Assembly (NCBI GenBank): GCA_050230475.1
Contig: JBFLGF010000031.1
Span: 1 to 64,000, forward strand
Direction: 5' to 3'
Length of the DNA stretch: 64,000 nucleotides
From: Ancylonema sp.
Taxonomy: Eukaryota
Shown piece by piece: positions 2,994 through 42,579 of this stretch; position 1 is the stretch's first letter, and each line of letters starts with the position of its first letter. Position numbers and translations under genes: made by a program. The notes below the pieces were generated by a model. That model did no database searches and was not told the origin of the DNA. It saw only the letters and a program-made list of their open reading frames with translations.

Positions 2994-3969
2994 GGTCTCT
3001 GACCACCAATTACGTGACTTCGACGGCTTTCAGTTCAAGAAAGGTACGTGAAAAGTGCAGATTTTTTTTTCCCCTACCTCTTTGCGTTGGCATAAAATCA
3101 TATATGTGCATCCAGGAGTAGCTGGAATTGATTATTTGTACAATTTGCGTGGTTTATCTGTGAAATTGCTGTGAAATTTGCGTGCTGAATTATCATCGTG
3201 AAAGCTATTTCGTGAAATTGTGAAATTCCTAGCATCTCTGTGATCTGGATTCTTGCAATCTTTGCTTTGGCTACCGTTCGTTACAGGTTGTTACTAGATT
3301 TACCGCTTTGTAACTAAGAGAACCACGAATATACTTTATAGAATTAGTTCCCGAACCTGGATCACGCAGTACCCAGCCTGTCACGCCAGTAAGGGAGGGT
3401 CAATTTCTTGCAAGTTCACTTTGTTGTTCTGTGACTTTTTCAAACACGAGAAGAAAGATTAACTATACCCTGCTCAGAAAAAATTTACCTTGCGACCTTA
3501 CGGTCCTCTCAGACTTGATTCGAATTTACCTGACCGAGCTCAATTTATTCGACATCACAGTATTTACCATTCGTTTACAGACAGTCCTACCAAGATATTA
3601 TTGTTTCGTACCAATCACTCTAGTACGTCACTCTCAAATTCAGAATATAGACACCGTATGTAATTTACTGAACAGTACCGTACTCTCGATTGACTTTCAA
3701 ATACCGTGACTATTATACAGATTGACAGTATACAATCAAGTCTCTACCACTACAAGTTGCTTCCACCGACATTCTTTTGTTGTTGAACGCACTAAGAACT
3801 GCTCACCCGGAACAATTGCACGCCTGAGAAGTATCGACAGCCATTACTCAACCATATAAACACGTTTATTAAAATAAAAAAAATAAAAAAAACCGTACAC
3901 AATCATTATTATACAAGATTTATCACAATTTCATTTAAGTAACATATACACCGTGAATTATCAAAGTTT

Positions 3970-5661
3970 ATGCCGTGGAAACGTATTAACGGAAGACTAA
4001 CGAAAATTGCCAATCTGGAGGATATACAGCAAACGGGACTAGCACTAGACATCCCTCTCGGAACGTTTACTTTAATAAACTTTTTGTTTGACAACAGTGA
4101 TTCTGAAAAGGATGGTATCAGGTTAACCAGACAGTTGTCTCAACCTAATTACTGCAGAAGTTCATATGGAAAAACACACCGAGAATTACCAACAGAAAAA
4201 TCAACCCCATATAATACAGTTCCAGTACGAAGAAATCAAAACAGCGCACCACCGACTGTATATAATTCTCCTGGATTTCGACACAACAACTATCCATCCA
4301 AAAGATTATTTGGATCAGCACCTATTACTAGGGCAACTAGCCTATCCTCAGACATGAGTTCAGATAATCCTAAAAGTCCAGATTTGACTCCGAACAAAGA
4401 AGTACCTACACCAATCCAACTACCGATTCCACCATCAACTACTCAACCGTCGCAATCTCCGCCAACACCACCGCAAGCAGTACCAACTTCTCAAAGAAAG
4501 AGTGTAAATTGGGGAGATAATATAACATCGTTACCACCAATCACACCGTATCACGGAGCACTGGGCACTACTCAAGACGAATTTATTAACTCAGTACTAA
4601 GTCATCACGAAATCCTTAATCGGGAAAAACGGACCGGCTATGTAGAGATGGATTTAGTTCGAAACCTAGGGGCTTATTGTGAAGGAGAAGCTCAACGAGA
4701 ATGGCAAAGTTTTATGACAGACCACGAAGGAGACGCCAACACAAGAGATTTACGTGAAATGCGGCGTGATTACTCTATCGATGAATTGTATTTCAGATAC
4801 TACAGATTTCATGATGGTATGACTGAACCACAGCCACCGAGCCAACCAGAACCACATGAATTACAAGCATTCATCGATGCAATTAAAACAAGATTCCGTA
4901 CCTCGTCTGCAGAATATCTGATTAAACTGAACAATATGGTTTGTTCACCAACGGATACAGTATCATCAATTTACGCAAAATTTAACGATGCACCTTACGT
5001 GATTGAAGGATCTAATGCAATGACTTCCGAACAGCTTGCACTTCGTTTACTACAACTGATTCCGTTACCGATCCAAGATCATCTTAAGAAATGGTATTTT
5101 GACACCAACAATCAACGGTTCTTTGCAAATCCACGAGACGCACCATTAACAAGAAAAGAGAACATGACAGAAGCTAATGAAAGTGAATCGTACAGGGCGA
5201 AACAAGAAGCTGACATGAGAGATGCGGGTGGAACGAGAAATTCATCCAACGCTAACATAACGAAATCGAAAAATGTTTACCAAAAGACTTATACACAGAG
5301 TACTCCAACGTACAGACCTACAGATCGACAAAATATTAATGGTGAAAGACCGCCTCCAACATGTTACAACTGCAACCAAGTCGGCCACTACAAGAAAGAC
5401 TGCAATTTACCAATGAAATCAGCAGCACCTACCGGACCTACGCAACCTTACCGATCTTCGAATCAACAAGCTAGCGGTCAACAACCTCAAGGAAATTACA
5501 AAGGAGACTCTTATGGACAACAACGAATGAATCAAGTTCCCAAACCTCGCCAGTGCGGACCTGAATCCTACACGAAGGGAGCAACATGCACTAACTGTGG
5601 GAAGATGAACCACATAGCGCAACAATGTCAACGACCACGAAACGGCCAACACTTAACGTGA
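3970..5661 (+). CDS. gag: Gag-like protein with two CCHC zinc knuckles
   Basis: 563-aa open frame containing CYNCNQVGHYKKDC and CTNCGKMNHIAQQC. The true start may be the later ATG (MSSDNPK). Confidence 0.85.
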   Translation: MPWKRINGRLTKIANLEDIQQTGLALDIPLGTFTLINFLFDNSDSEKDGIRLTRQLSQPNYCRSSYGKTHRELPTEKSTPYNTVPVRRNQNSAPPTVYNSPGFRHNNYPSKRLFGSAPITRATSLSSDMSSDNPKSPDLTPNKEVPTPIQLPIPPSTTQPSQSPPTPPQAVPTSQRKSVNWGDNITSLPPITPYHGALGTTQDEFINSVLSHHEILNREKRTGYVEMDLVRNLGAYCEGEAQREWQSFMTDHEGDANTRDLREMRRDYSIDELYFRYYRFHDGMTEPQPPSQPEPHELQAFIDAIKTRFRTSSAEYLIKLNNMVCSPTDTVSSIYAKFNDAPYVIEGSNAMTSEQLALRLLQLIPLPIQDHLKKWYFDTNNQRFFANPRDAPLTRKENMTEANESESYRAKQEADMRDAGGTRNSSNANITKSKNVYQKTYTQSTPTYRPTDRQNINGERPPPTCYNCNQVGHYKKDCNLPMKSAAPTGPTQPYRSSNQQASGQQPQGNYKGDSYGQQRMNQVPKPRQCGPESYTKGATCTNCGKMNHIAQQCQRPRNGQHLT

Positions 5662-7104
5662 CCCGTCCCTCCAATTTCATTGGATCTGCCCGCAAGACCA
5701 GATGTGCAACGCATCACGTGGAAGGACCAGCAACAACCTTATCCTAGCCTCACCTTCATGGAGAAAGAACCTGAAAAAGAAGCTGATTCAACGAAGGGGT
5801 CCCTTGACGACGACATTGACGAGTTAACCTATGCGCAGTTCCTTAACGAGGAAATTAAGATCCTTAAAAAAGGATGGCAAGAAGCGGTTAAGGTAAACAT
5901 ACCAAAACAGAAAACACTTACCCCAAGAAGATCCCCAAGAGTTGCTCAATTTGAACTACGTCGACAAACTTCAAGCTTACCAGATTCCTCCATATCACTA
6001 CCTAGACCAACTTTAACATCACCACCACCTGAATGTGACACTCAGGCATCAGAGAAAGCCACAATTACCAATCACCCTGTCACACGCAATGATGTATACC
6101 CACCAGAACATGAGGACAGAGGACGTTTCGATGTAGAAGGACCAGACTATGGAAGAAGACGTGGATATAGCGTTAAAATGCCAGAAACATGGATCCCTGA
6201 ATTCTCTGATAACATCACACGAAGCACGGTTAACATGGATGAACCAACATTCACTGACCCACCACCACCATTACCCCCCCTTCCTCAGGCACATGTAGTT
6301 ACCGACCAACTCAACACGATGCAGAGCGAGCTCCAAAAACTCGTCATCGAACAAAGCAAGGCAATCATCTTGGCACACGACCTCGTCCGCAGGCTGGAGA
6401 ACCCTTCCCCTCAGCTGTCGGCGATCCTCAAGGCCACGAAGGACACCCCGATGGCGAACACCTACAAGCCTCCACACGCAAGAAAAAAAGGTGAGCTTAC
6501 CATGGATACTTATCAAATCACCACGATTGATAATAACACTGGAATTTGTCACATCAATGGAAAAATCCCAATGAAACCGGTCATTGATTCGGGTGCACAA
6601 AATACTATGATTGGTATTACTTACCGAAAGACCCTCAACATTACCGATGAAGATTTACGACCCGGTTCACAATACACTACGGCATCAGGCGACATTCGAA
6701 CAAGCATGGGCAACACACAGGAGAAATTCCCCATTATCCTAGGAGCTGGCACACCAAATCCGACGACGGTGTGGACAGAGCTACACCTTTCCCCATCCAA
6801 AGATGTTGACTTACTTCTAGACACTGTTTTCATTGCCACACTCGGAGGCTGCATTGAAACCCGAGAAAAGAAGTTCGTTTACCGAGCTGATTGGGCTCAC
6901 GAAGGACATTGCCCCACAAGCGTTTCCATTACCGTCCAAGGACCTCCCAAGGTAACCCCACAAATACTCATGGCAGACTTCGAGGTTAAAAATCGCACTA
7001 CAAATGACATGCACCGAAACAAAGTGTACGACAACAACATTCGACAACAACCGTTACCTACTAGTGTGTTGTCCCTGCCCACACCTCAGTTACCCAGCAT
7101 ATGA
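5662..7104 (+). CDS. Polyprotein segment with retropepsin-like aspartic protease, in frame with gag after a TGA
   Basis: ICHINGKIPMKPVIDSGAQNTMI (DSG active site) followed by DVDLLLDTVFI. Same reading frame as gag. Confidence 0.75.
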   Translation, partial: PVPPISLDLPARPDVQRITWKDQQQPYPSLTFMEKEPEKEADSTKGSLDDDIDELTYAQFLNEEIKILKKGWQEAVKVNIPKQKTLTPRRSPRVAQFELRRQTSSLPDSSISLPRPTLTSPPPECDTQASEKATITNHPVTRNDVYPPEHEDRGRFDVEGPDYGRRRGYSVKMPETWIPEFSDNITRSTVNMDEPTFTDPPPPLPPLPQAHVVTDQLNTMQSELQKLVIEQSKAIILAHDLVRRLENPSPQLSAILKATKDTPMANTYKPPHARKKGELTMDTYQITTIDNNTGICHINGKIPMKPVIDSGAQNTMIGITYRKTLNITDEDLRPGSQYTTASGDIRTSMGNTQEKFPIILGAGTPNPTTVWTELHLSPSKDVDLLLDTVFIATLGGCIETREKKFVYRADWAHEGHCPTSVSITVQGPPKVTPQILMADFEVKNRTTNDMHRNKVYDNNIRQQPLPTSVLSLPTPQLPSI

Positions 7105-7378
7105 AAATCAATGAGAAAAATTGCAACATTACACATATTTACACATCAAGACAAAGAATACAAATACCGTGCATGGATGGTTACACCGTGGACTCGCACA
7201 TTCTACAATTTTCTTCAAAAAGACTTTGACGCTGCATCTCTATATATTGCACGCAAGCATGACTACCACGCAAAAAAAATGGCGTTTGACAACCTTATGC
7301 TCAGTCAAGAAAGTGAACGACTTCTAAAAAAGACGATGCTTACCGCGAAAATAGAATCACCATGGAAACCATTTTGGC

Positions 7379-8420
7379 GTGGCATTTCGTAAGACGACTT
7401 CAAATGCATTACCTCACCGGTTCGACTCATTCAACCAATATGGACTTCATGTGTGGCTACCATTTGCAGGTATCGACCTCTCCGGACTCATCATGTTGCT
7501 CAAAGGCGGATTCCGTATCTCTACACTTACCACCCAAGAAGAAGACCCGGAAGCACGTATGTCTCAACGTCGCCAAGTGAAAAGACCTTCAAACACTCTT
7601 TCCTAATCAGTTACCTAACTCTGCAGTGCATGGCTTTGATACACGAAAACAAAACGCATTGGTGAACACGACGACTACCAACATCTCCAACATGATCATG
7701 ACCCATGGACCAATCGACTTCATCTGCGGCAACTGGCACACTGAGGTCATCCGTAATGAGACACCAATTAGCACAATCAAAGATCCTCGAGTGGCAGCCC
7801 TGTTCACATTACTAACACTCGTTCAACAACTTCAAAAGATGCAACCTTTCATTCCGACATACATGTTTTACAATCATTCACGACTAACTGATTATCCTAT
7901 GTGGTCAAGAGAACTAGTGCATGTGGCATCACAATTTCTTGGAAAAATGATAACAGTCAACGCTTTACAGCTTGGTTCTCACTTTTACCGACAAACCCAT
8001 ATCTAGCAAAATACCTTTCCAAATGGACATCTTCGAGCAGCTATTCCCGACTACGGATGGATTTCCAAAATCGAGCGGTTACTCAACCCAGGACACCAGG
8101 AACAAGAAAAAGGTGCCAACACGTATAAGTACGAAAGCAACTATTACCAGTCCCGTGATGAGAGGCAATTCATGCCACCAATCAATCCTTACCAAGACAA
8201 TTCTGACTATGTGTTGACATGGAGACAACATCTACAACAGTACACGTACGGCGAAGGGATGTTGAAGGACAACACCAACAACCACTGGGTGTCACCAACA
8301 GCTGGCGAGCGTGCAAGATTTTTACATTACAGCTTGGACGATGTATCCATTCCTGCACACCCGGATACCAATTACCTGAACAAACGTAACTGCCAACTCC
8401 TGAAGAATAATGGACAATAA
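7379..8420 (+). pseudogene. Cytosine-5 DNA methyltransferase-like domain, frameshifted, catalytic motifs substituted
   Basis: Motifs in canonical order: I VWLPFAGI; II EEDPEAR; IV GPIDFICGNWHTE (no PC); V DPRVAALF; VI YMFYNH (no ENV); VIII NALQLGSHFYRQTHI*QN; IX GEGMLKD...PTAGERARFLHY; X RNCQLLKN. Confidence 0.7.
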
Positions 8421-9180
8421 AATATGTGCTGGGTATGGAGGCTTACTTGGTGCGTTTCATCGACAATCCCCAAATCTGGGGGGGAGCATCGCTACAACAT
8501 CAACAATTACATCTACATCCAGCTCTGTTTCGGACTCGGAGTCTGAAACTTTTTAAACCAGTTCTGAAAACGATTACCCTTTCTCATTCCCAGTACAAGT
8601 GGACCACATGGAGGAAGACACCAATACAATTTCACCTGGTTTCGGCTCCACAATTTCTTCATCCACAAATGCCACTACCATCCACGACGACAATAACAAC
8701 AAGACGCTACCAGATTTACCTTACAACCTTCCGATTGACTTGAAAGATCCCCATCCCCAACACACTGTTCAAATGATACATTACCAAGATGACACTATAC
8801 TACGTTTATGTCCACCACAAGTTACCAAAACTTTCAGCTCTGAAAATACCATCAAAGAAATACCATCAGAGAAATACCATCAAACCCAATCAAGACAACG
8901 TGTGATGGAAAATACTTGTTCATCGAAGGCATTTATGGTTTTGCAAAGCACAAGTTACCTTTAACACGGGAATCTGAATCCAAAAAAAAATCCCATCCAT
9001 TTACTTCTGCTACAATGTCTGCACACCCTGATGCTGTGATGACTACACATCCAACAATATCGACAACTTGTCATTTTTCAGCTTCTGAGAGCAACCCTTG
9101 TGCTACATCATTACTGTGATCCTGATCACTTTACCCTTTTATGTTGATTACCCATATGTGAACGCATAGCTCTTCAATCT

Positions 9181-9192
9181 GGGGGGGGGGAG
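9181..9192 (+). promoter_or_regulatory. Polypurine tract
   Basis: GGGGGGGGGGAG immediately upstream of repeat B1. Confidence 0.7.
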
Positions 9193-10268
9193 TTACGATA
9201 TTCCAGCCTCCTATCTGCACCTCCACTACATCGACAAGACCCCTTTTAGTCGATACTTTGAGTGCGATTACCTCTTCATCGACTGATTCCATCATCGATG
9301 ACCCATTTACCCTACCGATCTCATCCGGCACGTCACCTGTCATGCCTGTATGAATCGTCAACTAGAAACCCCTCTGTTTTTATCAGAATATTAAAATAGC
9401 CGCACCGCTATGTTTTTCCGCCTTGTCACGACTCCGCCCCCGCTCATTTTATTCCGAGCTTCGTTGGTGACCGGCGCCCCTGTTATTAAGTTTCGAGTAG
9501 TCAAACTTTGTCTAGCTCCCCTTTGTATTTGAATTGATTAGACTACGTGTCAGACTTGTCATCAATAACAATCGTGACCGTAGCTCTTTAGATCAACCGC
9601 TCAGAATCAATAGAGATGTCTGCAGCCAATTATAGCGTGCGCGCCGAGTTGATTTCCTTGCCACGCGTATCCCAGCGAGCGCGCGAGTAGAATATTCGAG
9701 TTTGACAATAAAGACTCTTGTAAAACTTTACAATTTTCAAATCTCAGCTTTCGCTAAATTTGACGTTGAAGAGATTTTACTTGCACACCATTGTTTTCCT
9801 CGACATCTGAATTCTTTGCCTTGCGCAATCTGTGATCTTTTGCTTTCGCAACATCGTGTGTATCGAGCGTTCGCTCGATTGTGATTACTTTGCATCAAGC
9901 CGTCGCTTTGTAATTTTTTAATTACCCTCGTTACCCAAGTTATCGATTGTCTGACCTGCTGCGCAGGCAGAAATCACCTGTTTGACTTACCGAGCGTTCG
10001 CTCATCCGTGCAATCCATTCGCACATTTATTTTGCTGCTATTGACAAGCTTTGCAGAACTGTATCATAATCGATTGCTTGCTGATTAAGAATCGACGCAT
10101 CTGTTGCTGTAATCTTGTGTCGCTCTCGTTACTTTTGAGCCGTCAAGTAAGAGCAGCGTGTGATAGCTTGCTAGCAGTGAGTAGTACAGCGAATAAAGCT
10201 CGAAAATTGCCTCGTTTGTGTGATTGTTTACAATCACTTCCGCGATTCAAGCGAGCACCGTACTATCA
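9193..10268 (+). repeat. Complete 3' LTR = B1 (9193-9336) + A2 (9338-10268)
   Basis: B1 matches 10270-10413 and A2 matches 2049-2980. Follows the PPT and ends in CA. Confidence 0.88.
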
Positions 10269-10269
10269 T

Positions 10270-10413
10270 TTACGATATTCCAGCCTCCTATCAGCACCTC
10301 CACTACATCGACAAGACCCCGTTCAGTCGATACTTGGAATGCGATTACCCCTTCATCGACTGATTCCATCATCGATTACCCATTTACCCTACCGATCTCA
10401 TCTGGCACGTCAC
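10270..10413 (+). repeat. Repeat B2 (terminal copy of the LTR 5' segment)
   Basis: TTACGATATTCCAGCCTCC...GGCACGTCAC, a ~144-bp direct repeat of 9193-9336. Confidence 0.9.
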
Positions 10414-14665: not shown

Positions 14666-15316
14666 TGCAGGGACCCAGGAAAATTCAGTGGAATAGAAAA
14701 TATCGAACCGCGATGAACTCCAAATGAGTTCAGCTCAAGGATGTGTTGTCGGCTACAAAAGCAGTGTTCCGTGACAGGCAAAATCTAGCAACCCGTCCGG
14801 AAGTCCATGTCTCCAGTGTGTTAACCGAAAGGGGAAAGAGCTAGGGGAAGAGAGCCTATTATAAGCGCAGAAGGCGGCCTAGTCACGCTCGCGTTTCCTG
14901 ACAGCACCCCCACCAAGCTGACCGAGGGGGCTGACAGCAGGGGTATTATTTTAGGAAATAGCGAAAACTTGTAGGGGCGGCAAAAACTCCCCATCAATTT
15001 ATATCTCGCGGCAAAACAAGTTGTTTGGCCTTGGGGGCAGAACAAATCAAGTTCGGCAAAAATATTCAGATTTTGACTATCCACGTGGGTTTGCAGACGC
15101 TGGTCGGTGACCAATGAGCCCTCTCCGGCCAAACAAGGGCTTTTTGCCAGCAGCTGCGTGGCCATGCCCATGGAAGGTCCACTACTTCTCCTGCTAAGGG
15201 GCATGGATTGATCTCCACAGCCTGTGACCGTCACTGTCCTTCTTGAGCTGAAGGAGGCTTTTAGAGACAACTCTTTCGAGCATTTTTTTTTCAATTAGGG
15301 TGTAAGTTACGATACC

Positions 15317-18300
15317 ATGGCACTCGTACCAGGACGATTCGTTTCCGCTATTTTCCCCCTCGTAGCATTTTGCGCATTGGCGTTCTTGACTTCTTGCACG
15401 TGCACTTCCGATTTCGACGGTCTCTCAAGTGCCTCCTCCGCAGAGGAAGCAGTAGAGGAAGCCACGTGGCCCCCTGGGTCTGTGCTGGAGCTGACGAAGC
15501 ACAACTTTTCGGAGGCTATCGGAGAGCACGAGTATTTACTGGTGGATTTCTACGCCACGTGGTGTGAACACTGCCAAAAACTGGCAGTCGAGGTCAGTAG
15601 TCGAAATCGGTAAAACGGGAATGGGACCCACGGACTATTCCCGTATTTCGAAACCGTGCTCCTGTTGATGAAACAGTAGATATCCGAATCACTGACTGTA
15701 AGCCACGTGCCATATGAAGGGCCACGTGGCCCACTGTATAACGCTCTCTGACACATGTCAAGATTTTAAAAACAATCCCATCTACAGTGCGGACTTCTCC
15801 AAGTGCCTTTTCCCCGTTGCAACTGATAAACCTCACGAAACAGACCCTTTTCAACCCGCATTCCACCCGGTTATCGGTAACCGGAACCATGAACCAGAGA
15901 ACCTCATCAATTCCCACCCTTACACAAATATTCTGTAGCCTCCCTTTCGATGCTTCCCCTTTTCGCATTCCTCGTCACCTCCCCCACCCAGAGTGACGTG
16001 GCTCATTCTCCACTCTCTCTATTTCGCCGCAGCTGGAAATCGCCGCTCCCCTATTGGCCCACGGCAACCCCCCCGTGACAGTGGCAAAAATCGACTCCGA
16101 AAAGTATTCTGCCATCGCCGGCGAACAGTACATCAGGTTAACCCCCTCCCCAAATTCCGCCCCACTCACCCTCCCCGTCCCCCGTTATAACGGGTGTCTG
16201 TTCATGGGTCCAATCACCCCTTCCTCTCAAAACCAGAGCAAACTTATTGACCAACCAACCAACCCCCTGACAAACCAGCCAACCAAATACGCAGCCTGAC
16301 CCCCAGCCTTGCACCCTCCCCCCCAGCCGCCTCCCCACCCTCAAGCTCTTCGTCCACGGGAAGCCCTCCGCCTATAACGGCCCTCTGGAAGCCCTCCTGC
16401 TAGTGCCAGCTGTCCAGCGCCTGCTTGCGCCACCTGTCCTCGCCCTCAGCTCTGACGACGAAGTGCGTGCCTATGTGGAGAGGCGCACGGGAGGGGCGCT
16501 GGGGGTATTCGTGGGTGAGAAGGGGGGGGAATGAAACGAGTACCTCGCTATTCTCGAGTACTTCTCCGTGTCGGAATTCTCGCGTCTTGAATTGCAATGT
16601 ATCCGATCTGAAATGATTGGAGAAGCGTTTCTTATTTCCCATCAGCCGTTTTGCCTCCTACCCCCACCTCCCCACACCCCCTCCCTCAACCCCTCCCCTC
16701 TCCCTCCCCCCCCCCCCCTCCCCCCTCACAATTAAACCTATTTCAGGTCTAGGCCTGACTCCCGCTGAATTAGAACCGGTAGCCACCAACTTTTTGGACC
16801 GTGCTTGGTTTGCCACGTCTCCCACATTCTCGGAGCAGCTCATGGTTGACCTTGACTTCGATAAGGGCCCCGCCCTGCTGGCGATTCACAGCTTGGGAGA
16901 GATAGAGGTGTTCTACGGACCGTTTGAGGGTGGGGGGGGGGGGGGAAGGTGGCATCTGGGGGGCAGGCGAGGTGGTATCGGAATGTATTATTTTGGGGGG
17001 GGAGTATATTGTGCCTAGGAATGTAGGAGGATCATGGCAAGCTGAGATGTTTTTTTCAGCATGGTGCTTAAAAAACGAAAAAAAAATGGACGAAGGGAAG
17101 AATGAGAGGGGAGAAAGTTACCAAATTAGTACCTCACCAAAAAATACTAAATCAGTACCTCACCAAAAAGTACCAAATTAGAACCTCACCAAAAAAGTAC
17201 CTCTCCAACACCCCTCCCCCCCCCTTCTCCCCCCTCCTCCCCTTCCCTCACTTCCATTATTTTCTCCCCAGGCAAAGATTTGTTCCAATTCGTGGGTCAG
17301 AACTACCTCCCCCCCATCGTCCTCTTAACCGAATCCACTTTCTCTCAGGTGGTCTCCACAGGGAGACCCATCGTAATCATGGCGGCAAACTTTGACTTCC
17401 AGGCCCCCCTTAACCTTGGACTAGACAAACCGGATCCCAAGGATGTGGACTCGCCGGCAGGGGAGGCGGTGCGGTTTACGAGGAGGTTGGGGGGGGGTTG
17501 CGGGCGGGAAGGGGGGGGGGGAGGGGGGGGGTGGGGTGGGTGTTTGTTTGGGTGTTGGGCGGGATACGTTTGAGGGTTGGGGGCAGGGGGGGTAGGGTGT
17601 GGGGTGGTAGGAAGTTGGATGTTAGGGTGGTGGCGGAAAAGGGTTTCGGGTTTAGTGGCTGTGGTTTTTTTGTGGTTCTTGGGAGGGAGGACCTGCAGTT
17701 TTTTTGGGGAAATCGTGTGTGACGACGTTTGAACCTTATAGAATTGATGAAGCACATGTACCTCGATTCGCATATTTGTGGAACCAACGGGAAAAATAAT
17801 GAAAATTTTATGTGGAAATTGTAGAATTCACATTTTAGGTCACCATACATTCCGCCCCTCATTCCGCCCTTCTAGTGGTCTCTAATCGTCTCGTTGCTCA
17901 TTCATTTTCTTGGGATTCTCTCCTTTTTCTCCACTTTTCTTTTCATGATCCATGTTTTCCATTATCAGATTGAAACCCGTGGCTCGACGGCATCGCGACA
18001 AGCTCTTTGCTTACATTGACGGTGCGCGCCACAGAACCTTCCTGGAAAGCTTCCACATCAATGTTGCTACCGACCTTCCACATTTTGTGGTGTGGAACGG
18101 GGGAAACGAGTACTACGAGGTGGGGGGGGGAAAAGGGGGGGGGGGGGGGAGATGGGGGGGACGGGTATGGGGTTGGGGGAGGAGATGGGAGAAGAGTATT
18201 CCTTCCTCATATCTCTTGTACATGACAACAACCAATAAATAATAATAAAAATAAAAAAACTCGTTTTCGAAATGAGTACATGGCGGTCTGCTCCTCTCAC

Positions 18301-23040: not shown

Positions 23041-26000
23041 CTACGCCAGGTTTGCAAGCCCAAACGATCTCCCCACAGCAATCGACCACGAGGCGAGCCT
23101 CTTTTCTCTCTCCTCCTGGCCGATACTTGGCTTGAATTCTCGGTCTCCTTCCTCTTGCACGCCCCCCTTGAACACCTCGTCTTCCGTCCACAACCCCACC
23201 GCCAGCCCTGCTGCGAAAGCGGCCCCTAGAGCCGTGGTTTCCACATAGGAGGGGCGCACCACGGGAGACCCTAGGAGGTCGGCCTGCGGGGGGGAACACA
23301 CACGCATGCACACGAGTCAATATACAAAAATCGGGGAGGGGGGTGGAACTAAATGAAACAAACAATATTAAAAATTAAAAATTAAAAAAAAAATAAAAAA
23401 AACGATGGAAAACCAAATAAACAAGAAAATCCATTTTTATTTTTTTTTTATTTTTTTTTTTTTTAAGAAAAAAAAAAGAAAAAAGAAGGTGCTTGTGCAG
23501 GTGTGTGCAGGTCCCTTGATTGTTGAGATGAAAATGTACAGCTGTCCATGTCTGAGTGATCCTGACCTGCAGCTGCATGAGAAGGTTGTTTACAGTGGCC
23601 CCTCCATCCACCCTGAGAAGAAATCCGTCTTTGGAGTCCATACTGCCGTTGCCCAGGTCAGAGTGCATGGCTTGGAGCACCTCACAGACCTGGAGTCGAA
23701 GGCACAGGAAATAGAGGGGAGAAATAGAAAGGAAATCAGGTGAGGATTTGTCTGTCTTGCGTAGGAACAGGGACTGTTCTAACAGCTGCTAGGTAACCTG
23801 TGGGAGGGGCAGCAGACAACCAACGTCTGCGCGTGTGTTTCTCTTCTTTTTTATTTTTTTCTTTTTATTTGAAACACATTCCTGCAATGTTTTTTTTCTT
23901 TTTGTTTTGGTCCTTGCCTGGAAGCACATGCTTTCCAGCACCGCCCTCGCAATGTGCGCCTTCCCCGTGTAGCGCGTGATCCCCACACACACGCCGCGGG
24001 CATCGTCACGCCACCAAGGGGCAAACAAACCACTGGGGACCAAAACAAAAAAGGAAACAAAAAGGATCAGGAACCTGCTTCACCCACTGCTCCTCACTAC
24101 TATCATGTCTACACCTACTACCACCACTACTGCAACTACAACCATCGCAACTTCTACTACTACTGCTACTACTGCTACCATTGCTACCACTGCTACTACT
24201 GCTACTACTACTGCTACTACTACTACAACTACTGCTACTACGGCTAAAAATACTACTACTATTTCTAATGTTGCTTCTACAAGTCTGCTACAACTTGCTC
24301 TTACTACTAGTGCTACTGCTACAGCTGCAGCTACTGCTACAGCCACAGCTCCAGCTACAGCCACTCCCTCCTAGTGGCCCACTACCTAGTCCACGCCACA
24401 AAAACCGTCGACCAAGTGCCCCAACCAACCCACTCCACATCCTCCATCCTGAGCCCCTTCCCTCTCTGGGCCGCAACCGTTTCCCAACCACACATTCCCC
24501 CCAACAGGAACCCCCCCAGTCCCCAGTCCCCAGTCCCCAGTCCCCTGACCTGAAGGCAGGCACGAAATACACGCCCCCCGTGCTCTCCACCTCCCCCGCC
24601 AGCCCCTCTACCACCCCCGCCGTCTGTATGAGCCCCAACCCGTCCCGCAGCCACTGCACAGCCGCCCCCGCGATCGCGATGGACCCCTCCAGGGCGTACT
24701 GGACAGGGGCCCCAGGGCCCAGCTGGAAGGCCAGGGTGGAGAGGAGGCCGTGGGTGGAGAGGCGGATGCGGGTACCCGTGTTGAGGAGGATGAAGCACCC
24801 GGTTCCGTACGTGGCTTTTGCCTGACCCGGACGGCACTTCTGCCCCAGCATGGCGGCGTGCTGGTCGCCCAGGCAGCCGGCCAATGGGGTGCCAGCCAGG
24901 GGCCAGTTGCCGCAGACGCTGCCCAGGACCTCTGGGGGGGGGGGGAGGGGGGGGGGAGGGGCTTTGAAATTGGATGGGGGATTTGGAGAGGGGTTGGAGG
25001 GTTGCGGGTTCTTGGGGGGGGGTGAGAGGTGGGAGTAGGAGGTGAGGGTGAGGTGGTAGGCAAAGGGGGAACACTACCACCCATAGAACCACACACACGG
25101 CATACATACAACCAAAAAACAGAACCAAAAAAAAAAACAAAAAAAAAAAACAAAAAAAAAAGCGAACTACAAATGCAAAAAAAGAGAATGAAACAAACGA
25201 TGAAAAAAAAAAGTCAAAACCAGAAGCTGCGATGACAACAACCACAACATGAAAATCAACAACGTAACCATCACTATAATTCTATTATAATAATGGGAAA
25301 AAAAAAACAAAAAACAAACAAACAAACAAACAAGAAGCCTTAAAAAAAAATAAAAAAAAAAAATAAAAAAAAAAATAGAGGGAGGTCTGACTTCTTCCCG
25401 GAGCGTTGCTGTTGTTTTCACCTGCGTTGCTCACGATTCTCGGCAGCATGGCGGGGGGAATGCCGAGTGTCTTCAGCGTCGGTTCATGCCACGTCAGCGT
25501 GTTCAGTTCCATCATCATGGTGCGGGACGCATTGGAGCAGTCGGTGACGTGGCGACCACTGGCAGAGGAACAACGACCCACGGCTCGGCTGCCACCTGGA
25601 AGAAAAAAAGAAGAAAAAAAAAGGAAAAAAAAAAAAAAAAGGAAGGAGGGAATGAGGGATGGGTGGGAAGTGCCCCAAGTATTGTGCAACGGGATTTGGC
25701 AGCGGTATGTGTCTGTGGGCGTGTGTGGTGAGTAGGGTACAAAATGAGGAGAAAGGAAATGGGAGGTGATTTCGGGAGAGGAGGGGAGAAAGAAGACGGG
25801 GGGGGGAGATACCGCACAAAACAAAACAACAAAATGAATGGTTGGTTGGTCGGGTTCCGTTTCCTCACTTTTTTTCTCATTTCTAGTCAGGATTGTGTAT
25901 TGACCTTTAGGACATTAATCATTCAGGCCACCAGGGGGGCAAGCCAGCCAGACACATGCAAAGTACCGGTAGCGCCACGTGGCAGCACGACAGTGCAGGT

Positions 26001-27410
26001 GGGGGGGGCCACCTGTCAAGTTCCAGATGAGCCACGTGTCCATTGTCCCAAACAGGGCGTCCCCACTCTCTGCCGCTGCCTTGACAGCTGGCACGTTCTC
26101 CAGGAGCCACAGCAGCTTCACAGCACTGAAATAGGTGCTGATGGGAAGCCCCGTGGTTTTACGGAAATGGTCCTTGCCGCCAGGGAGGGTCTGCTCCAGC
26201 CTCCTGTGGGGCAAACCGGGTAACCGGGTAACCGGGTAATAGTGTAACCGGGTGGCCGGGGGGAGCGAGTGTGGGGATGTGTGAGAGGATGTTGGTGGGG
26301 GGAGGTATGGGATGATAGGTGGAGGGATTTGGATATGCGGTTGTGCTATGGGATTGCGAACGATAAGTGAGTTTTCGACTGAATGTAGGAGATGTGGAGA
26401 ATGCCAGCTGTCACTCAGCTGCTGTCCTAGTCCCCTATAGCAGGGCTCATTGGGCTCATTGGGCTCATTGGGCTTTGTTCTTTCTTGCCCAGGAAACAGC
26501 TGCTTCTGCTGGATATTATCCAGTGGTCTGGCATTCGCTATTTTAGCGTTCGTTATTTTAGCATTTTTTTCCAACAAGGTTACCAACAAGGCGGGACAAA
26601 CGAGCGAGCTGAAGGTAGGTCCCACCTACATATGCTGCTTGTACGGACGTCCATCCAGACGAGGGCATTATAGAGTGGTTGCCCGGTGGACTTGCTCCAT
26701 ACGACGGTTGTCTCTCTCTGGTTCGTGATGCCGATTGCCTTTATCGCGGTTCCTGATAGACGAATGCCTGCAGCTTCGGCTTTCCGTACTGTTTCTGACA
26801 TGCAGGTTCGGGTGACGGCCAGACTGGTGAGGGGGTCATGCTCGACCCATCTGACAGAGAAGAAACATACAAACAGAAACGGGTGGTTCAGTTGAACAGT
26901 TTTATGCATGACCAGGCATGCTTGGAACCATGCGGAAGGGCACACAGCACAGGTACACATCTGTTCTGAAGGCAGACTAAGCTTATTTCAGGAATATGAT
27001 GCTTCGAGCATTAGGGGCATTTGGGATGAATGTGCAAGGCAATGGTAGAGAAGTAGACTCGACATGCTTGAGGAGACATGCTTGGGCAGCAAGTTTTCGG
27101 TTCAGCAAAACCACAATTCACAGAAGTAAAACCGCAAGATGTGCGGGTCCTGAAAGAATCCTCACTGACTGGTCAGTTGTGAAGATTGCAATGTGGTATA
27201 CAAATTATTTGCCCACATCGGTACCACATCAAGTGTATATGCGGGCTTTCAGGCTGAAGTCATAGGGGGAGGAGCCTACCCAGCCTGAGGATGAATCTGC
27301 TCAAATTCAAGTTGATGACTCGCCACTTCCCGAGCATTTTTATCGTATACAATAAACCTAGTGCTGGTCGTCCCTTGGTCGATGGCACCGACATATGACG
27401 GGAAATCCAT
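23041..27410 (-). CDS. GLPK: Glycerol kinase (FGGY family), 8 exons
   Basis: Exons 27410-27280, 26850-26626, 26203-26013, 25595-25422, 24931-24550, 24032-23918, 23689-23567, 23283-23041. Motifs [65 protein letters not shown]. Confidence 0.96.
24097..24362. repeat. (ACT/GCT)n microsatellite in a glycerol kinase intron
   Basis: Directly visible; produces spurious Thr/Leu/Tyr-rich ORFs. Confidence 0.9.
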
Positions 27411-31467: not shown

Positions 31468-33488
31468 CTACTGAGCTGCTTGGAAATCTCCAAAATCGCC
31501 GTCATCGGCTGCCACCTCTTCCTTTGCTGATCCAGCTTCATCAGCCGCATCTGAAGCAGATTTGTTGTCCCCTTGTTGCAGATTTGGAACTCCAACCTCA
31601 TCCTCTCCTGAAAAAGATCCAGATCCAGATCCAGACCCAAAACTTGGTCTCAGATCTGACTCGCTTGTGATCCGTAACCTTGCAAAGGCCCCAATGCTGC
31701 CGGATGGCGGGGGAGGGAGGATAGGCAATCCCTTATCTATGGAAGTGGTTCTGAGTGGGTTGACACTAGAGACTGGGGGTGTGATGAGGATAGGCGATGC
31801 TGACGGCTGTGTGAAGAAACTGTCACTCAAACCTGGTTTGGGCCTTGAACTCTGCACAAATGAAGACAATGAAATATAAGAAATATAATCCATTCATCTG
31901 ATTGGCACAAGCTCTTCCTGTTGTAACACCACTTCAGATTCCATCGGAATCTTCAAGCATGCCAACAATAAATGTCATTTTTCTAACCTACCCACCAGAT
32001 GAGCTCCACCCACCAGAGAGTACTCAAGGGAGTCCCACAGTTTCTTCCCACACTTCAAGGCCCAGAATTTCAGAGAGCCGTCCTCTTCTGGACTGCTTTG
32101 CAACTTAAAAGAGATGCCTGATGTGTCACCCCTGCTGTTCCATTTCGTGAAGAAGCATGCCTTATAATGCCAGTGTGCATGCGTACTTATGAATCACATG
32201 CATTGCCGTAGTCGACTTAGTATCCTGGATGCAGAACTCCACCTGGATGACCTCCAGTCTATATGCCTTGTAATCCTATATTAGTGTGATGTGTGAAGAT
32301 AAGTTTACATTAGTTCAGCCGTATGGCGACCTTTCTGAACCTCTATCTAACTCATCAGCTGCCAATTGTGCGCTTGTCTAAAGATCAAGAATTGGAGGTC
32401 GCATACAATATATGGGATTCAACATGTGGCACTGCTACCTTCACTTGTTCTTGTGGTCACTGCAGACAGTCTTACCCGTTTGATATCGAGGTGAATCGTT
32501 TCACCTTCCTTCAAGCTGTAGTCCACTTGAGGCTTGGACTGATACTCCTGTTCCATCTCTGCAGCCTCCTTCTTCTTATTCATATATTTCACGTGGTCAT
32601 ATAGGGCTGCCTGAAAGTCATATGCCTCGGGCCTTTCTCTAAATCCTAAGCCAACGAAGGCATGTCTTCCTGAATTACCCAGAGTATCTTCTATCCTGAG
32701 AACAAAGAATCTGCTACTGTCTATGACAGCCTCCACAGGTAAAGGCTGGTCAGCTTTGATGGCGGACTGAGCATACAGCTCTCCACTTTTTGTATCCTCT
32801 AATCTTATAAGACATTCGTGTCCCTTCGATACAACTTTGAGGGCACCTTCCCACGCCCATTTGTTGATATCCCACTCATCTGCCCTGCAGTGTAACAGAC
32901 TCCAGCGGAGTGGCATCAGTGGTTCGCTGCAGATTCAAGATTCGAGTAACTGCACCTGCTAGAGGGTCATGGCGTGGAGAGACAGTAGCTTCAGAGTACT
33001 TTCTCAATGGCATTTCAATCGAAATGAAGACACTCGATGACGAGATAGGAGCTGGTAAAATTACCTGTAAGAAGCTGCACTCTTGCGTGGCGGAATCTGC
33101 GACACAAAACTCCGACAAATATTGAAAATTTTAGAAAAAAATCTAAAAACAGGACTTCTTTCTGCGAGCATCAGTCAAGTTCAGAAAGAGTTTGAACCTC
33201 GTGTCATGCAGTAGACTTGTTCCCCACCTGACTAATGTGTCCCCTGCTTTATTAGTAGACCACATCGAATACAGTGCGTTATGTTCAAGCTCGGCTGACT
33301 AAATTCTGTGCAGTGAGTTGTGTACCGTGGGGCAAGAATTGTATGAACAATGTTGACAAAAGCTGCTGCCTCACCTTGTAAACGTAGCATTCCGCAACTT
33401 GAAATAGTACCAACTCTGCATAAGACTCCTCTGCCTCCAATTGATCATCTACAGCATTCGGCACAGGTTTTTTTATTGCTGCTGCCAT
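31468..33488 (-). CDS. Adaptin ear-binding coat-associated protein (NECAP-like)
   Basis: Exons 33488-33375, 33096-33065 (IPPRKSAASYR), 32884-32476 and ~31851-31468. Motifs RADEWDINKWAWEG, DSSRFFVLRI, AFVGLGFRER, DYSLKEGETI, C-terminal DFGDFQAA. Confidence 0.92.
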
Positions 33489-34209: not shown

Positions 34210-35144
34210 CATAGTTGCACGAACCGGCTGTTTTTTTTTTTGGGAACCGGTTCCGAGATGGAACCGTTTCGGAACCGGACGAACCGGAATATTTTTAGGG
34301 TTATACTCCTTCCCGCGGTAGAACATTTTTTCCCTCCCAAAAAACGTACGCGGGGGAAATAAATCGTTGCAAATGTTCATGTTGGTAACTCCACGTCCAT
34401 TTCAGACGCTAAAATTGTGAAATATTTCATCGGAAAAATATGGCGTGGCCATTGTTAGTTTCAATTTGCTTTATTTCGCGCCATGGCAGGACGTGGTGCA
34501 TTTTCATTGGCAGAAAACAACACGCGACCTTCCACTATGAAAATATTTGGAGAAGCAAGAAACGTGAAAGGTAGGAGAATTGAGTAGGAAGAGAGTGGTT
34601 ATAAATGGAGTGCCGCAACTTTGAGCAGACGATCGAAAATAAAAAATAAATGGAAAGTTAAATCAAATGTCGAGTGGCAATACAAAATGGGTGATAGCAT
34701 CATGTTGCAACATTTTCACATGAAATTAAAACACGGAATGGGAATGAGGAAATATGTATGGAATGAGGGTTACTGGATAATACAAAAAAGAGTGAAACTG
34801 AAATTGGAATTTGTTATATAACTACTATTACATGAACACCAAGAAAGTGTGCAGAGAAGTGAGCAAAACAGAGAAATGCACTGAAAGGTGGCAGATACAT
34901 TCATGAGAAAAATCGTTTTGAGTTTTTTCACTATGTGTATCATTTGTTTGATACTTTTTTTTGGATAGACCATGAAGTGGTACACAAAAATAAACTATTT
35001 GTCGTTTTTTTCCGAGCCATATAGCCCCTCAAAATGCCGTTTAAGTGAAAAAACCCCTAAATCCCGCGGTTCCGAACCGCGGCCACTTTTGTCGGTTCCA
35101 TATAAGATCCGGTTCGGAAACGGTTCGGAGTTCGTGCAACTATG
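34210..35144. mobile_element. hAT-type MITE, family 2
   Basis: TIRs CATAGTTGCACGAAC / GTTCGTGCAACTATG; 8-bp TSD CCTTCTTG/CCTTTTTG (one mismatch). Inverted copy at 42595-43520. Confidence 0.9.
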
Positions 35145-38100
35145 CCTTTTTGTGAGAGACAAACAAATTTATTTTTTGCCATGGCGGATGAGGATAGCCC
35201 ACTCTTTCATTCCGAAACGGATTCACACAAGTGGTGAATTGCACAAAACACGGTGGCAAATTAGATGATGCAAGAGTGAATGAAAGGTGTCTATGGGATC
35301 ATCATTTCCCTCACTGTCCCCATTCCAGATTATGTGGAGGGTCACGCAAAGGCAAAATCGATATCTTAGTAGCAACATGTAAGGAAGTTGGTGTGTATGT
35401 ATGTGTATTGGGGTATGAGGGTGTGTGTACGGAAATGCATTGGATATTGAATTGAATTGAATTGAATTTTGTGTTGAATTGAATCATATTCAATTCAATA
35501 CAAATTACATCCATACGTGACATGTCACATATGGGACATGCGACATGGGACTCGCATATTTATACTCGTACTGAAACAAAGAACATATGGCATTATACAA
35601 ACTTGGGTCCCTGACAAGGTTGGCGGGACGGTTCTCGCATTTGTCCCGGACGCCACTTGTTGAGGACATGTCCCGAGGATCCCGAACATGTCTGGTGCCA
35701 ACTATGAAAAATATCAAACTACATTATTTTTCCATTTAACATTTTTTAGAGACACATGAGTGGGGGTTTTCATGACATGACACTTATATAATATTTGGTA
35801 CGCGCATCGTATCTTGCTCACGTACAACAACGCCACTGCTCGCCTAGGCGATTCACTTAGTCGTTTTCATGGGAGTTGTTTTACAATGTGTCCGGGTCCG
35901 AGACGTGTCCAGGCTAGGACATGTCTCGGACATGTCCGGAGACTTCCAAGGATGTCCCGGTGTTATGATTGCATTCATATGCAAAGAGCGGGGAACTACA
36001 AACCGTTCCATTTTTTCCCATGACCACTTGAATGAAGAAGTAGAGTAATGAGGCCGCTTTCTTTTCCTAGAGAGCCCGTCACGAGCATGAGCCCGTTGTG
36101 AGCCCGTCGTGAGCCTAGAGCCCGTTGTGCCCGAGATAAACGCATTCCAACCATGTCGAGACCGGTAGGATTGTGCTCCGTCAAAATGCATGTGCCGGTC
36201 CATATCTTTGTAGTCACTAATGGTGACTTACTATTGCGAATAACATAAAAACAACAAGTTGCAAAAACATGGTCATGGTTCATAATGAAAAGAAAAAATG
36301 TGTGATAATATCATTATCCATCAACGTAATCCTTGTTAAATGTCATCACTCGCATAAGATAGATTGCGCAACTTGCATGCAAGTTAACCCCTTGTTCAAT
36401 ATATCACGAGTGACTCAATAGTTGGGTTAGTTGGAATAACACATCATACAAGTATCATCAAGCATACTCTCACTACACAATAAAACTATTCGGAGTGAAA
36501 TATGTTGTGGGGCAATTTGCACCCCAATACGTCAAATTGTCTAGTTCCCGTCTTCAAAAACTAAAAAGAAAAACTACCCAAGAATTGGAGAATAGCGACG
36601 GGCACAATGTCTTGGTACACATGTACTCTTTTTATCACCCCGGAGCATCTTGTAGCCATGTAGTATTATGTCAAAAACTCCAAAAACCGACAAAATGGAG
36701 ATACTAACGAATGCAACGAAAACGAACATGAAGTCCACCAAAACATAGGACTTGGATGCTCCCCGACCCAGAATTTCAAGTTCTTACCAATTCTTTAGAA
36801 TTTTATGTGAGGACTATCATAGATCCGAATTCGGGATCATCCAATTTTATCACTCCAGAGGTCCCCAACATTAATTACATGAATTCCCTGATTTGCCGCG
36901 ATAATTTCCGCTCTTTGATACCACGCTAAGCTGACTGCATTCACCACGAATCACAACGAAGAACCTTACATTTGAATCACTATAGCATGAAACAGGTGAT
37001 GTTGATGCTAATGTTGATGCTCATGATGAGTTAAAGCTCGTTACAAGAACAACAAATAATAAGCCTTCCGTGGCCTTGCAAAAAAATAACTACACAGCAA
37101 GAATGACAACGTGTAATTATTTAGATATCATAAAAGTTTTTGGAAACAATCGAAGCCATCAAAAGAGTAAAGCAAGAACATAGATTTCGAGAATAAAGAG
37201 AAATTGCAAATGGTTTATGGAAATCATACCGAATGTTTTGGAGGAGGCTCCACCTCAACTCTGATACGCAATACTTCATGGACTGGTGGCGGCCTCTGTA
37301 CCGTTTTCTTCCGCCCAAACATCTGTCAGCGCGCTCACAGAGTTCATTTTTTAGATTTGTAAAGAAAGGAAATTAGCCGGAGCATGCCATGATGCAACAA
37401 GAGAAGGAATCGAAAATGGATCACACGTTTCTGAACGGTATCATTTGCTACATGGGAATAATAGAAGAACTCGACTAGGTGTTCAGATACACGATACGAC
37501 ACCAAAACCAACACAATTTAATAACATGTATAGTATCGCTGCAGCAATGACATCATTTTATTACTGTATACATGACCGCATGCTCGAAAACGCCTGAAAT
37601 GATTATCATCACATGTCTCCAAATTCAAGTTGATCTTTCTATCATGCTAGATTCTGGCACGAGATTTTTTGTCGACACATGTCGTTTCAGCTAGGGAAAA
37701 GAAAATAGGGATCTGATCCCAGCACGCCGCCGTCTTTATGAAAATAGGCATCACAAGCACCACAAATTCACCGCAGAAGCATAGAAACAGTTGATATCTT
37801 CTTCACCCAAAATAGATGCTTCCCAAAAAAAAAGTCACCCTGGCCATCAAAACTGCCGGCAGGGCAGCCCTGCAGATGAATATAACGCAGCAGTAAACCA
37901 ATGCCCTGTTTTATAGCCACAAGAGGCCCAAACTGTCGAGGATAGAGTACGAGCGTATCAACCTTGCTTAGCGTGGTCTTCAGTCACTCCTTGTGGTCCT
38001 CTGCGGATGCGTTCATAAATTCGTGGAGGTGCTCCTTCATCTTGCCTACAGTGGATGTAGGCTCTGGTCGATCACAACCCTTGGCCCCAGCGTCGGGTTC

Positions 38101-38555
38101 TTCACGAGGGATGGAATTCTCCATGCCTGCGGAAACCGTATGGCCGCCCAGCTCCCAAAAATGTATTCGACTTCACAGAATATATCTGCAGGTTGTGCGG
38201 CAGTGTGGCCATGCCCGCCGTTTGGAAAGTTCTCCGAAGCTCACAGCTCAGGGTGGTGTCGCCTACTGCGGTAGGCGACACTGGCCTACCGCAGTGGCCA
38301 CCGCGGCCCACTCATGCAGTAGCGAGTAGGGAATTGTTACGACTGTACCGGCTGGTGATCTGGCCGTTAAAAACTCGCCGTCGATTACCCGGAACAATGT
38401 CGGTTTATCGTGGCATAATCGCCGCTGTACGTGAACCAGCGTCAACCGACCAGGGAGTCCAACGAAACCCTTTGGGCTCCGGACTCCTCCGGAGCCGACT
38501 CCATGACCTGGTCCAGGATCGCGGCTCCGAGCTCATTTCAGAGATTCAGAATGAG

Positions 38556-38690
38556 CCAGAGCTCCAGAGCTCCAGAGCCGAGAGCGCAGAGCGCAGAGCC
38601 GAGAGCCCGTACCGCAGAGTCCAGAGCTCCAGAGCTCCAGAGCTCCAGAGTTCCAGACCTCCAGGGCTTCAGAGCTCCAGAGCTCCAGAG
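38556..38690. repeat. 8-bp tandem repeat (CCAGAGCT)n, degenerate
   Basis: Directly visible. Confidence 0.85.
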
Positions 38691-39697
38691 CCGGGAGACC
38701 AGACCTCCGGAGTGCCTTTGTAGCGGAGAGAGGAGAGCTGAGTATGCCAGACTAATATGCACTTAAAATAAATGTGGTAAAATGAGCCACGACCTGATCG
38801 AAGTGGACAAGGCGAAAGAATGCTTACGGAGGGCGGTGCCTTAGGCAGAGTCGTCCAACTTATTAGACAAGGCGCGCGAGTTGCGTGTGAAGTCTACAAA
38901 TCTAGCGGAAGTCTACCAGCTCATCGGCAGGGCGTTACTCAGCAATTCCGATGATGACGAAGCGAGATTTGCATCATTGCTTTCCCTCGGAAAAGCAGTG
39001 TGATTTTGCGCAGCATCAATTTACAATCCCGCCCGCTTGACTTCCAATGATATATCTCAAGTAGGTGGGCTGAAGAACGGAACTGTGAGATGTCTTGCGT
39101 TCATGTACCAAAGGAGAACTGGAAAGCGGCCGGGATTGACTTGATTTTGGACCGCGATTTGATTTTTTTTTTACGAAAATGATATATACACGGGTCTGGC
39201 CCTGATCGATGCTTCGTTGCTGAGCATTAGATAGAGCTCTACTGGGAGTGGGACGTGGAAGGAAATGGTGCAAAGGATGCGTGCATTACCACCTAGAAAG
39301 TGCCTTTGATAGCGACAATAGGATATGTAGGATCAAGTTAGAAAAATTAAGATTGGGTAAGCAAACGAAGAAGCTAGACTCCTCCAATGCCTGGTCTCCG
39401 CTACACCAATTGCGCACAGCTAGCTCGGAGTAATCGGAGTCAAGACAAAAGTACCGTACTATAAAATAAAAAATAATGCACCTCATTTCGGACCTCCGAG
39501 CCAAGCTCCGAGCCCGGAGCACTAGATCTGGGCTCGGAGCTTTCCCGGAGTCCGGCTCGGAGCCCAACGCTTTTTTCATGGATTGTGACTTTGGATTGAA
39601 TCATGGACTCCGAGCCCGAATCTGAGCTCGGATCCGAGCCCGGATGTTACGCTCCGACATGGGCTCCGACGTTTAGCTCAGAGCCGGAGGAAAAAGC

Positions 39698-40554
39698 GAG
39701 CTCGTACTGCCAAAACATTGTTCTTAATGCCAAAGAAGATTCCCCCGACAGGACTTACGGGGGACCGTAAATGCAGCTCGAAAGGACTTGGTGGCTTGTG
39801 GGCCGTCGACCTGTAGTACGGCCTACTTTGTCGAGATTCAGTTGTAGATATTCTAGATCTACGGGCCGCATACAAATGTTTTCCGTCCGCCTGTGCGACG
39901 TGGCCCCTTCAGAAGCCTGTACTGTTGTTCCCAGCCCACGTCCTCGAGATGTAGCAATCGGTGAGCCCACGCCCACCCAACTTCTATGGACTGCGGGCTT
40001 TCAGAGCTCGCAGCCCAGATTGCAGGCAACGGCCCAGCTCGGAGCCCGCAGCCCAGCCTTGCAGCATGCAGTCCGCAGCCCAGCTTTCAGGCCGTTATTT
40101 TGCGCCGCAAGCTGGGCTCCACCGAATCTTCAATTCAGGCATAATTCTTTGAGCTCTGGGCTGCATCCGATTATTTGGGCTGTGGTCTGGGCTGCCAGCT
40201 GCATTCTGCGAGGCTGAGTTGCGGCTGCTATCTCGACTGCGGGCTCCCGCTACCCGCAGCCCATAGAATTTGGGTGGGCTCACCAATCGCTAGATCTCGA
40301 GGACTTGGGCCGGGAATTTGAACAACGGTACAGGCTTTTGAAGGGGCCACGTCGCGCACAGGCGGACAGAAAACATTTGTTTGCGGCCCGTAGATCTAGA
40401 ATATCTACAACTGAATCTCGACAAAGTAGGCCGTACTACAGGTCGACGGCCCACAAGCCACCAAGTCCTTTCGAGCTGTATCTACGGTCCCCCGTAAGTC
40501 CTGTCGGGGGAATCTGCTTTGGCATTAAGAACAATGTTTTGGCAGTAGGAGCTC
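39698..40554. mobile_element. Foldback element with ~320-bp terminal inverted repeats
   Basis: TACTGCCAAAACATTGTTCTTAATGCC... at 39705 is mirrored by ...GGCATTAAGAACAATGTTTTGGCAGTA ending at 40547; arms are near-identical. Confidence 0.85.
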
Positions 40555-41926: not shown

Positions 41927-42570
41927 TAGCGTTATGAAATTACGGTATTTTTGGGTTAGGTTGTAGTAATTACGGTGCTTTTACGAATAACGTAAGATTA
42001 CATCTTTTTTTTGGTAAATGACCGACAGGCGAAACGTGAAGTGTAAAACATGGGTAAATTACACTTACCAGTAATGTAGATGATATCCATGGTAAATGGT
42101 AATAACGGTAAGATATTTAAGCACGAATTTACCGTAAATGACGATTGCGAGGACATAACATCGACCTTGAATTGACAAATGACGTTTCGCCAGCCGTCAG
42201 ATTTGATGAGGTTCAAGTCCGTTGAAGCCATTCACGGTATATTATCATCCATGGTAACAGACTACTAACACGGTTTTTAAAACCCCCCCTTTTTTTTTCC
42301 TTTCTTTTTTTCGTTTCCCCCCCCCCCCCCCCCCCCCCCCTTTATATTAAATCAATATTTATATATCCATATTTATATATTTAATATTTATTAATTTATA
42401 TTGCTGAGCTTTACCGGATATTTCGTTTTTAGGAATTTTGGCTCTTGTAACGTGTAATTTACCAATTATGCGTAAAACGAAAAAAAAACAGGTATTTTTA
42501 CGTTTTACGTTACGTAACATCTTACATACGAGTGTAAGTGCAAGGTGTAAACGTAACATTCACAACGCTA
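41927..42570. mobile_element. hAT-type MITE, family 1 (second copy)
   Basis: TIRs TAGCGTTATGAA / TTCACAACGCTA; perfect 8-bp TSD GTGCGGAT. Confidence 0.9.
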
Positions 42571-42579
42571 GTGCGGATA

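Follow-up and report, generated by a model that had tools for sequence, protein, structure and literature searches.

What use could a retrotransposon make of a cytosine methyltransferase domain that has lost the residues required for methylation? The question is raised by positions 7433–8420 (+ strand) of the window, that is, the whole stretch of 64 000 nucleotides that was analysed. A previous reading of the letters alone (the sequence-only reading) had described a retrotransposon-borne C5-methyltransferase domain at this place, 3′ of a protease.

Identity of the domain and layout of its element

With its two breaks bridged by X, the domain was searched against 1.84 billion representatives, which yielded 44 matches at E ≤ 0.001. 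Many of these matches carry PF00145, and in several long ones RT, RNase H, integrase and PHD domains are present as well. From this set, P0034 was dropped from the family as an unrelated hydrolase, and P0021 and P0041 were excluded from the family counts; in P0021, a DNMT domain is fused to PHD and PCIF1-type domains. We built a family HMM from 36 relatives only, excluding the window sequence, and found that it matched the window at 7581–8342 (E = 5e-29) and 7331–7582 (E = 1e-11), with nothing else below E = 1 in a six-frame translation of the window. The three pieces of the domain scored 38.3, 80.2 and 8.6 bits, compared with maxima of 0.3, 4.1 and 0.3 in 300 shuffles each, and chance resemblance was rejected on these scores. 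A profile of 19 such relatives matched DNMT3A at 7e-18 and matched the profile of the dead group described below at 99.6% in a profile–profile comparison. Segment 7433–8420 of the window thus encodes a cytosine methyltransferase domain that is Dnmt3-like and of the kind borne by retrotransposons, and the motif order I–X is that of this fold; the HMM and profile comparisons bear out the claim of the sequence-only reading.

The checks proposed in that reading included a comparison with PF00145 and structure prediction. Matching to PF00145 failed: Pfam returned 0 families for the pieces and for the read-through, and neither the domain nor the clade profile matched anything in Pfam or among PDB sequences, so that the link runs via the relatives. 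Because Pfam misses these domains, they are probably under-counted. Structure prediction came out in favour of the assignment, as the model (pLDDT 71), whose alignment included active relatives, best matched DNMT3A/B (Foldseek E = 1e-9; VIA Z = 15.0, rmsd 3.8, 219 aligned); a model from the clade only was poor (pLDDT 54), with no match at E = 0.001. Word-based searches found no longer relatives, which is weak evidence, and no DNA locus was found in the metagenome, viral or genome contigs searched.

The element lies on the + strand and has split direct repeats in the order A-coding-B-A-B, with TG and CA termini. It begins with the TG of the first repeat A (2049–2980), which is 92% identical to the second copy (9338–10268) with gaps counted; the two copies show 56 differences over 922 positions (K2P 0.063, about 6% diverged). 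The first repeat B (9193–9335) ends in CA and is 94% identical to the second (10270–10412), which forms the CA end of the element. The sequence-only reading, which had the repeats a few percent apart, missed both the split layout and the absence of RT, RNase H and integrase. A purine tract read from the sequence (9181–9192) stands immediately 5′ of the first repeat B, and a second, similar G-rich tract is located at 8478–8486, shortly 3′ of the dead domain. At the junction between the first B and the second A (9181–9339), CA is followed by two bases and TG; the purine tract stands in front of B, not of the end of the element. The layout corresponds to a two-LTR circle opened within one LTR, which may hint at how split-repeat Gypsy elements integrate. 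No tRNA gene was found in the 64-kb window.

Coding begins with a gag-like frame that contains a pair of CCHC zinc knuckles (3943–5661; PF00098 in two stretches, E = 6e-10), followed in the same frame by a linker and a retroviral-type aspartic protease (5662–7104; core approximately 6547–6717; PF13975 at E = 1e-5, under the curated cut-off). This protease region matches that of P0042, a relative in which a protease is followed by a DNMT. A further linker without a Pfam match (7105–7432) contains a stop at 7390–7392 and a frame change. The pseudo-methyltransferase itself consists of motifs I–II (7433–7582; 38.3 bits), a core with motifs III–VIII (7587–8006; 80.2 bits) and a diverged target-recognition region with motif IX (8007–8420; pLDDT below 50 at residues 226–271 of the model). 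The sequence-only reading had reported motifs I, II, IV, V, VI, VIII, IX and X in three frameshifted segments; the motifs occupy two frames, with the break near 7580. An in-frame stop stands at 8004, and the upstream frame change falls somewhere near 7400–7430. Motif X is not in the 8007–8420 frame; its remnant, R-I-M-D, was found in the next frame, at 8404–8415. The Ser/Thr-rich tail (8421–9180) shows no similarity to RT, RNase H or integrase, and its frame gave no Pfam match and no usable Atlas match. A remnant of RT in the tail was considered and rejected, as tblastn and phmmer against RT-bearing relatives gave no match. Likewise, neither Pfam nor these comparisons found RT, RNase H or integrase anywhere in the window element, whose coding content indicates that it very probably needs a helper in trans.

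We further examined contigs from four runs (at most 3 samples from 2 studies). The element was matched by 10509, 4487, 995 and 126 contigs, respectively, over a wide range of identity, and where repeat A begins, 29 contigs in run X1 differ in their flanks; these numbers and flanks indicate a multi-copy family. At position 5660, a stop in the window copy, the whole contig depth differs in 4/4 runs, and the stop at 8554 also differs. A length difference near 7580 appears in part of the depth (45% in X1 and 84% in X2), with another near 8401, and the stop at 8004 is read through in all three close relatives that cover the site. These differences, together with the read-through, suggest that a single long frame was probably the original state of the family and that the window copy broke later. 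No single contig in the four runs spans the element, and its RT-less layout is known from the window copy alone. In all four runs, some contigs follow repeat A as far as 2965 and then run into another interior, which is perhaps that of a candidate helper family. Other contigs, also in 4/4 runs, share a leader piece (3401–3741) and then continue elsewhere, as would related families sharing cis parts.

Loss of the catalytic residues

The motifs of the domain are located at 7463 (I, F-A-G), 7731–7745 (IV, N-W-H-T-E), 7869–7877 (VI, Y-N-H), 7989–7997 (VIII, R-Q-T) and approximately 8295–8318 (IX). The Cys in motif IV of active C5 methyltransferases is replaced by Thr (7740); this residue is present in 30/33 other relatives covering the column and in 0/7 clade members (window included here and in the next two counts). 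The Glu of motif VI is replaced by Tyr (7869; 24/25 versus 0/6), and the second Arg of motif VIII by Thr (7995; 21/22 versus 0/4). The reported changes of ENV to YNH and of RxR to RQT are thus confirmed, and the change of PCQ to HTE stands in part. Because the usual motif IV of the family is W-E-C-Q (Glu in 61%), the loss of Pro tells little, and the real changes are the replacement of Cys by Thr and of Gln by Glu. Since the catalytic residues are replaced, and since catalysis in C5-methyltransferase chemistry needs the motif residues lost here, the domain, as judged from its residues, is catalytically dead and should be incapable of C5 methylation.

The loss extends in part to the cofactor pocket. 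The acidic residue preceding F-A-G is gone (motif I acid in 29/32 other relatives versus 0/2 clade members), as is the Asp of motif III (Asp/Asn in 30/36 versus 0/3). However, F-x-G and the acidic residue of motif II are still present in the window copy, as is the remnant of motif X, which matches the G-x-x-M-D found in 14/15 relatives, and binding of the cofactor may persist for this reason.

To judge the age of these losses, we compared the window protein with its database relatives. Covered catalytic residues are lacking in three close relatives (P0002, P0003 and P0046; 79–85% identical where homologous) and in four distant ones (P0006, P0047, P0009 and P0012). The dead proteins form four lineages, which are 27–48% identical and in which motif IV reads N-W-H-T-E, N-Y-H-T-E, N-W-N-Q-E and N-W-H-T-E. 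In trees that took seven rows of sufficient length, with 10 short rows left out, they formed one clade (99.9/100; 99.8/100 with the motifs masked; 100/100 under the LG+C20 mixture model). The stem branch of the clade is long (1.35–2.5 changes per site), and its placement varies. The clade members were found by similarity to the window protein, which inflates the motifs they share. The distant members are fragments of 95–185 aa on contigs shorter than 1 kb, and thus the elements they come from may be either autonomous or decayed. Another dead Dnmt3-like form is P0041, with neither the Cys nor the Glu and with R-Q-T in motif VIII; the AU test for its monophyly with the dead clade gave P = 0.34.

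Because seven other database proteins share the catalytic loss and belong to one clade, it does not represent decay of the window copy. It is well supported by the sequence comparison that the loss long predates this decay and is common to the clade, and the sequence-only reading was correct that the changes exceed what a copy with repeats 6% diverged would accumulate. In addition, 61/71 sites of the hydrophobic core are hydrophobic, compared with 39.5 under neutral drift to 24% identity, and the window protein contains 1 stop in 328 codons, compared with 12.4 under the same drift; the 3% private decay of the window copy predicts 1.1 stops. Post-insertion decay was accordingly rejected as the cause, the losses being common to four lineages and the core being kept. 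These comparisons make it very likely that selection has kept the fold. However, the invariant columns (6/48) are within neutral expectation (P = 0.2–0.5), and the new motif, although it is the most conserved window of five residues, reaches P = 0.008 if preset and P = 0.24 if picked afterwards.

Possible roles of the dead domain

DNMT3L and DNMT3B3 are inactive partners of DNMT3A/B. The window domain resembles them in having a DNMT3 fold without working catalytic motifs, whereas they are mammalian host genes with histone-reader domains and pseudo-enzymes of separate origin. The explanation that we favour, and to which the sequence data lend a little less than an even chance, is that a Dnmt3-like domain of an old clade, after losing catalysis, has been selected as a protein-contact module that would dock onto an active methyltransferase domain, as DNMT3L does. 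The helix after motif VI is identical at 10/17 positions between two lineages that are only 33% identical overall, and the profile alignment pairs it with a DNMT3A helix that we take to be the interface with DNMT3L. Protein contact is favoured because the core and this helix are kept, whereas DNA-facing residues are lost and the cofactor pocket is lost in part. Considered as an analogy, a DNMT3L-like docking role is speculative and is put forward tentatively.

If so, the element would produce gag particles together with a polyprotein that is cleaved by the protease and has the dead domain at its end. It would borrow RT and integrase from a helper, as has been proposed for TR-GAG elements. The dead domain would dock onto an active methyltransferase domain, for example in the Pol protein of the helper; this docking could draw the RT and integrase of the helper to the particles of the element or tune the methylation of cDNA. 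A more general form of this idea, in which the domain is a transposon-encoded DNMT3L by which RT-less parasites capture the Pol of a DNMT-bearing helper or jam host de novo methylation, appears doubtful.

We weighed docking against four alternatives, and we infer from the sequences that it is to be preferred to nucleic-acid binding, then to an inert spacer, a host decoy and new chemistry, in this order. The dead domain could instead bind the cDNA or RNA of the element, shielding it or guiding integration; DNA binding was, with a decoy and an anti-silencing role, among the options proposed in the sequence-only reading. The fold is indeed kept at full length, including the target-recognition region and motif IX; the first Arg of motif VIII is present in 4/4 clade members, the whole domain is mildly basic (charge +4, inside the family range), and the conserved aromatic residue at the motif VI Glu column (6/6) could stack on a base. 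However, the Ser/Ala/Gly of the catalytic loop and the target-recognition residues, all conserved in the family, are replaced in the clade, and the target-recognition region is acidic (net charge –3; positive in 16/18 relatives) and modelled with low confidence. DNA binding is less likely on these grounds, and we consider this role improbable. That the domain is a relic which binds neither partner nor ligand and serves the polyprotein only as a folded spacer would agree with the relaxed constraint implied by the long stem branch (1.35–2.5 changes per site), and an open frame could persist merely through its joining to gag and protease. Nevertheless, no useful coding follows the domain, so that its truncation by a stop or its deletion would do no harm, and still its length, core and surface motifs are maintained across deep lineages; a spacer therefore seems less probable again.

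The same interface evidence that suggests docking would also suit an anti-silencing decoy, which would tie up Dnmt3/DRM enzymes of the host in inactive complexes. The family has reached many copies, and repeat A is not depleted in CG (observed/expected 1.34–1.38, compared with 0.51 in a copia remnant of the window). In contrast, the mild CG depletion of the coding parts (0.78–0.79) and the C-to-T differences between the repeats in CG (8/118), CHG (8/69) and CHH (12/217) fit ordinary methylation, and fusion to gag and protease would presumably place the domain in particles and not on chromatin, so that little weight falls on a decoy. Least probable of all is a site rebuilt for new chemistry, with an Asn like that of amino-methyltransferases or a His/Glu metal site. 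In the former catalytic loop, an Asn and a Glu are found in 4/4 lineages without exception and in 0% of the other relatives at those columns, and the Asn sits where amino-methyltransferases carry N-P-P-Y. However, no P-P-aromatic follows this Asn, P0009 lacks both His, P0012 is without the Gly of motif I and the acid of motif II, and the conservation of the motif is not significant when the window is picked afterwards (P = 0.24).

Comparison with known elements and other features of the window

Retrotransposon DNMTs are already known; the clade of catalytically dead forms described here, itself well supported, is a new variation on them. According to the accessible part of one source (PMC5890265), KnitGypsy-Dnmt3 of Klebsormidium nitens combines DIRS-type repeats (A-coding-B-A-B) with Gypsy domains, has a full Pol and conserves the key DNMT residues; the Klebsormidium Dnmt3 domain showed no activity in yeast. 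The window element shares with it the repeat order and a Dnmt3-type domain in the polyprotein region, on the same strand after gag and protease; in contrast, it has substitutions at the catalytic residues and lacks RT, RNase H and integrase. The likeness rests on this layout and on relatives carrying RT, RNase H, integrase and DNMT. A Ka/Ks below 0.2 on the domain further characterizes elements of the KnitGypsy-Dnmt3 type. SymbioDIRS-Dnmt3, described in the same part of that source as a tyrosine-recombinase element whose enzyme is active in yeast (PMC5890265), also has a Dnmt3 domain and A-coding-B-A-B repeats, but no recombinase was found in the window element. Membership in DIRS/PAT was rejected, as the scanned element frames contain no tyrosine recombinase and an aspartic protease is present. 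TR-GAG elements, as far as the accessible text describes them, are non-autonomous LTR retrotransposons with terminal repeats and gag, without RT and mobilized in trans (PMC8704663); unlike these elements, which have ordinary LTRs and gag only, the window element has split repeats, a protease and a pseudo-methyltransferase. Judging by the type of element and by PMC6338049, the host is perhaps an early land plant or a green alga.

The standing idea for retrotransposon DNMTs is self-methylation of cDNA (PMC5890265, accessible part). A clade that has given up catalysis and retained its fold, even in an element devoid of integrase and RT, suggests that the domain has another task besides catalysis, and the active-type and dead relatives form a natural pair for testing such a role. 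The literature covered, which comprised few subscription papers and the accessible part of PMC12344493, contained no inactive retrotransposon DNMT.

Elsewhere in the window, a CG-depleted copia-type remnant lies at 45315–48387 (– strand). Long inverted repeats at 34231–43498 (570 nt, 90% identical, approximately 8 kb apart) enclose an inverted pair of 200 nt at 39698–40554, and these are likely nested DNA transposons. Pieces of host genes, which are split by introns as in eukaryotes, were found at 15299–17600, 24288–26625, 32419–32934 and 50925–51485, and resemble thioredoxin/PDI-like, FGGY kinase, DUF1681 and LSM genes.
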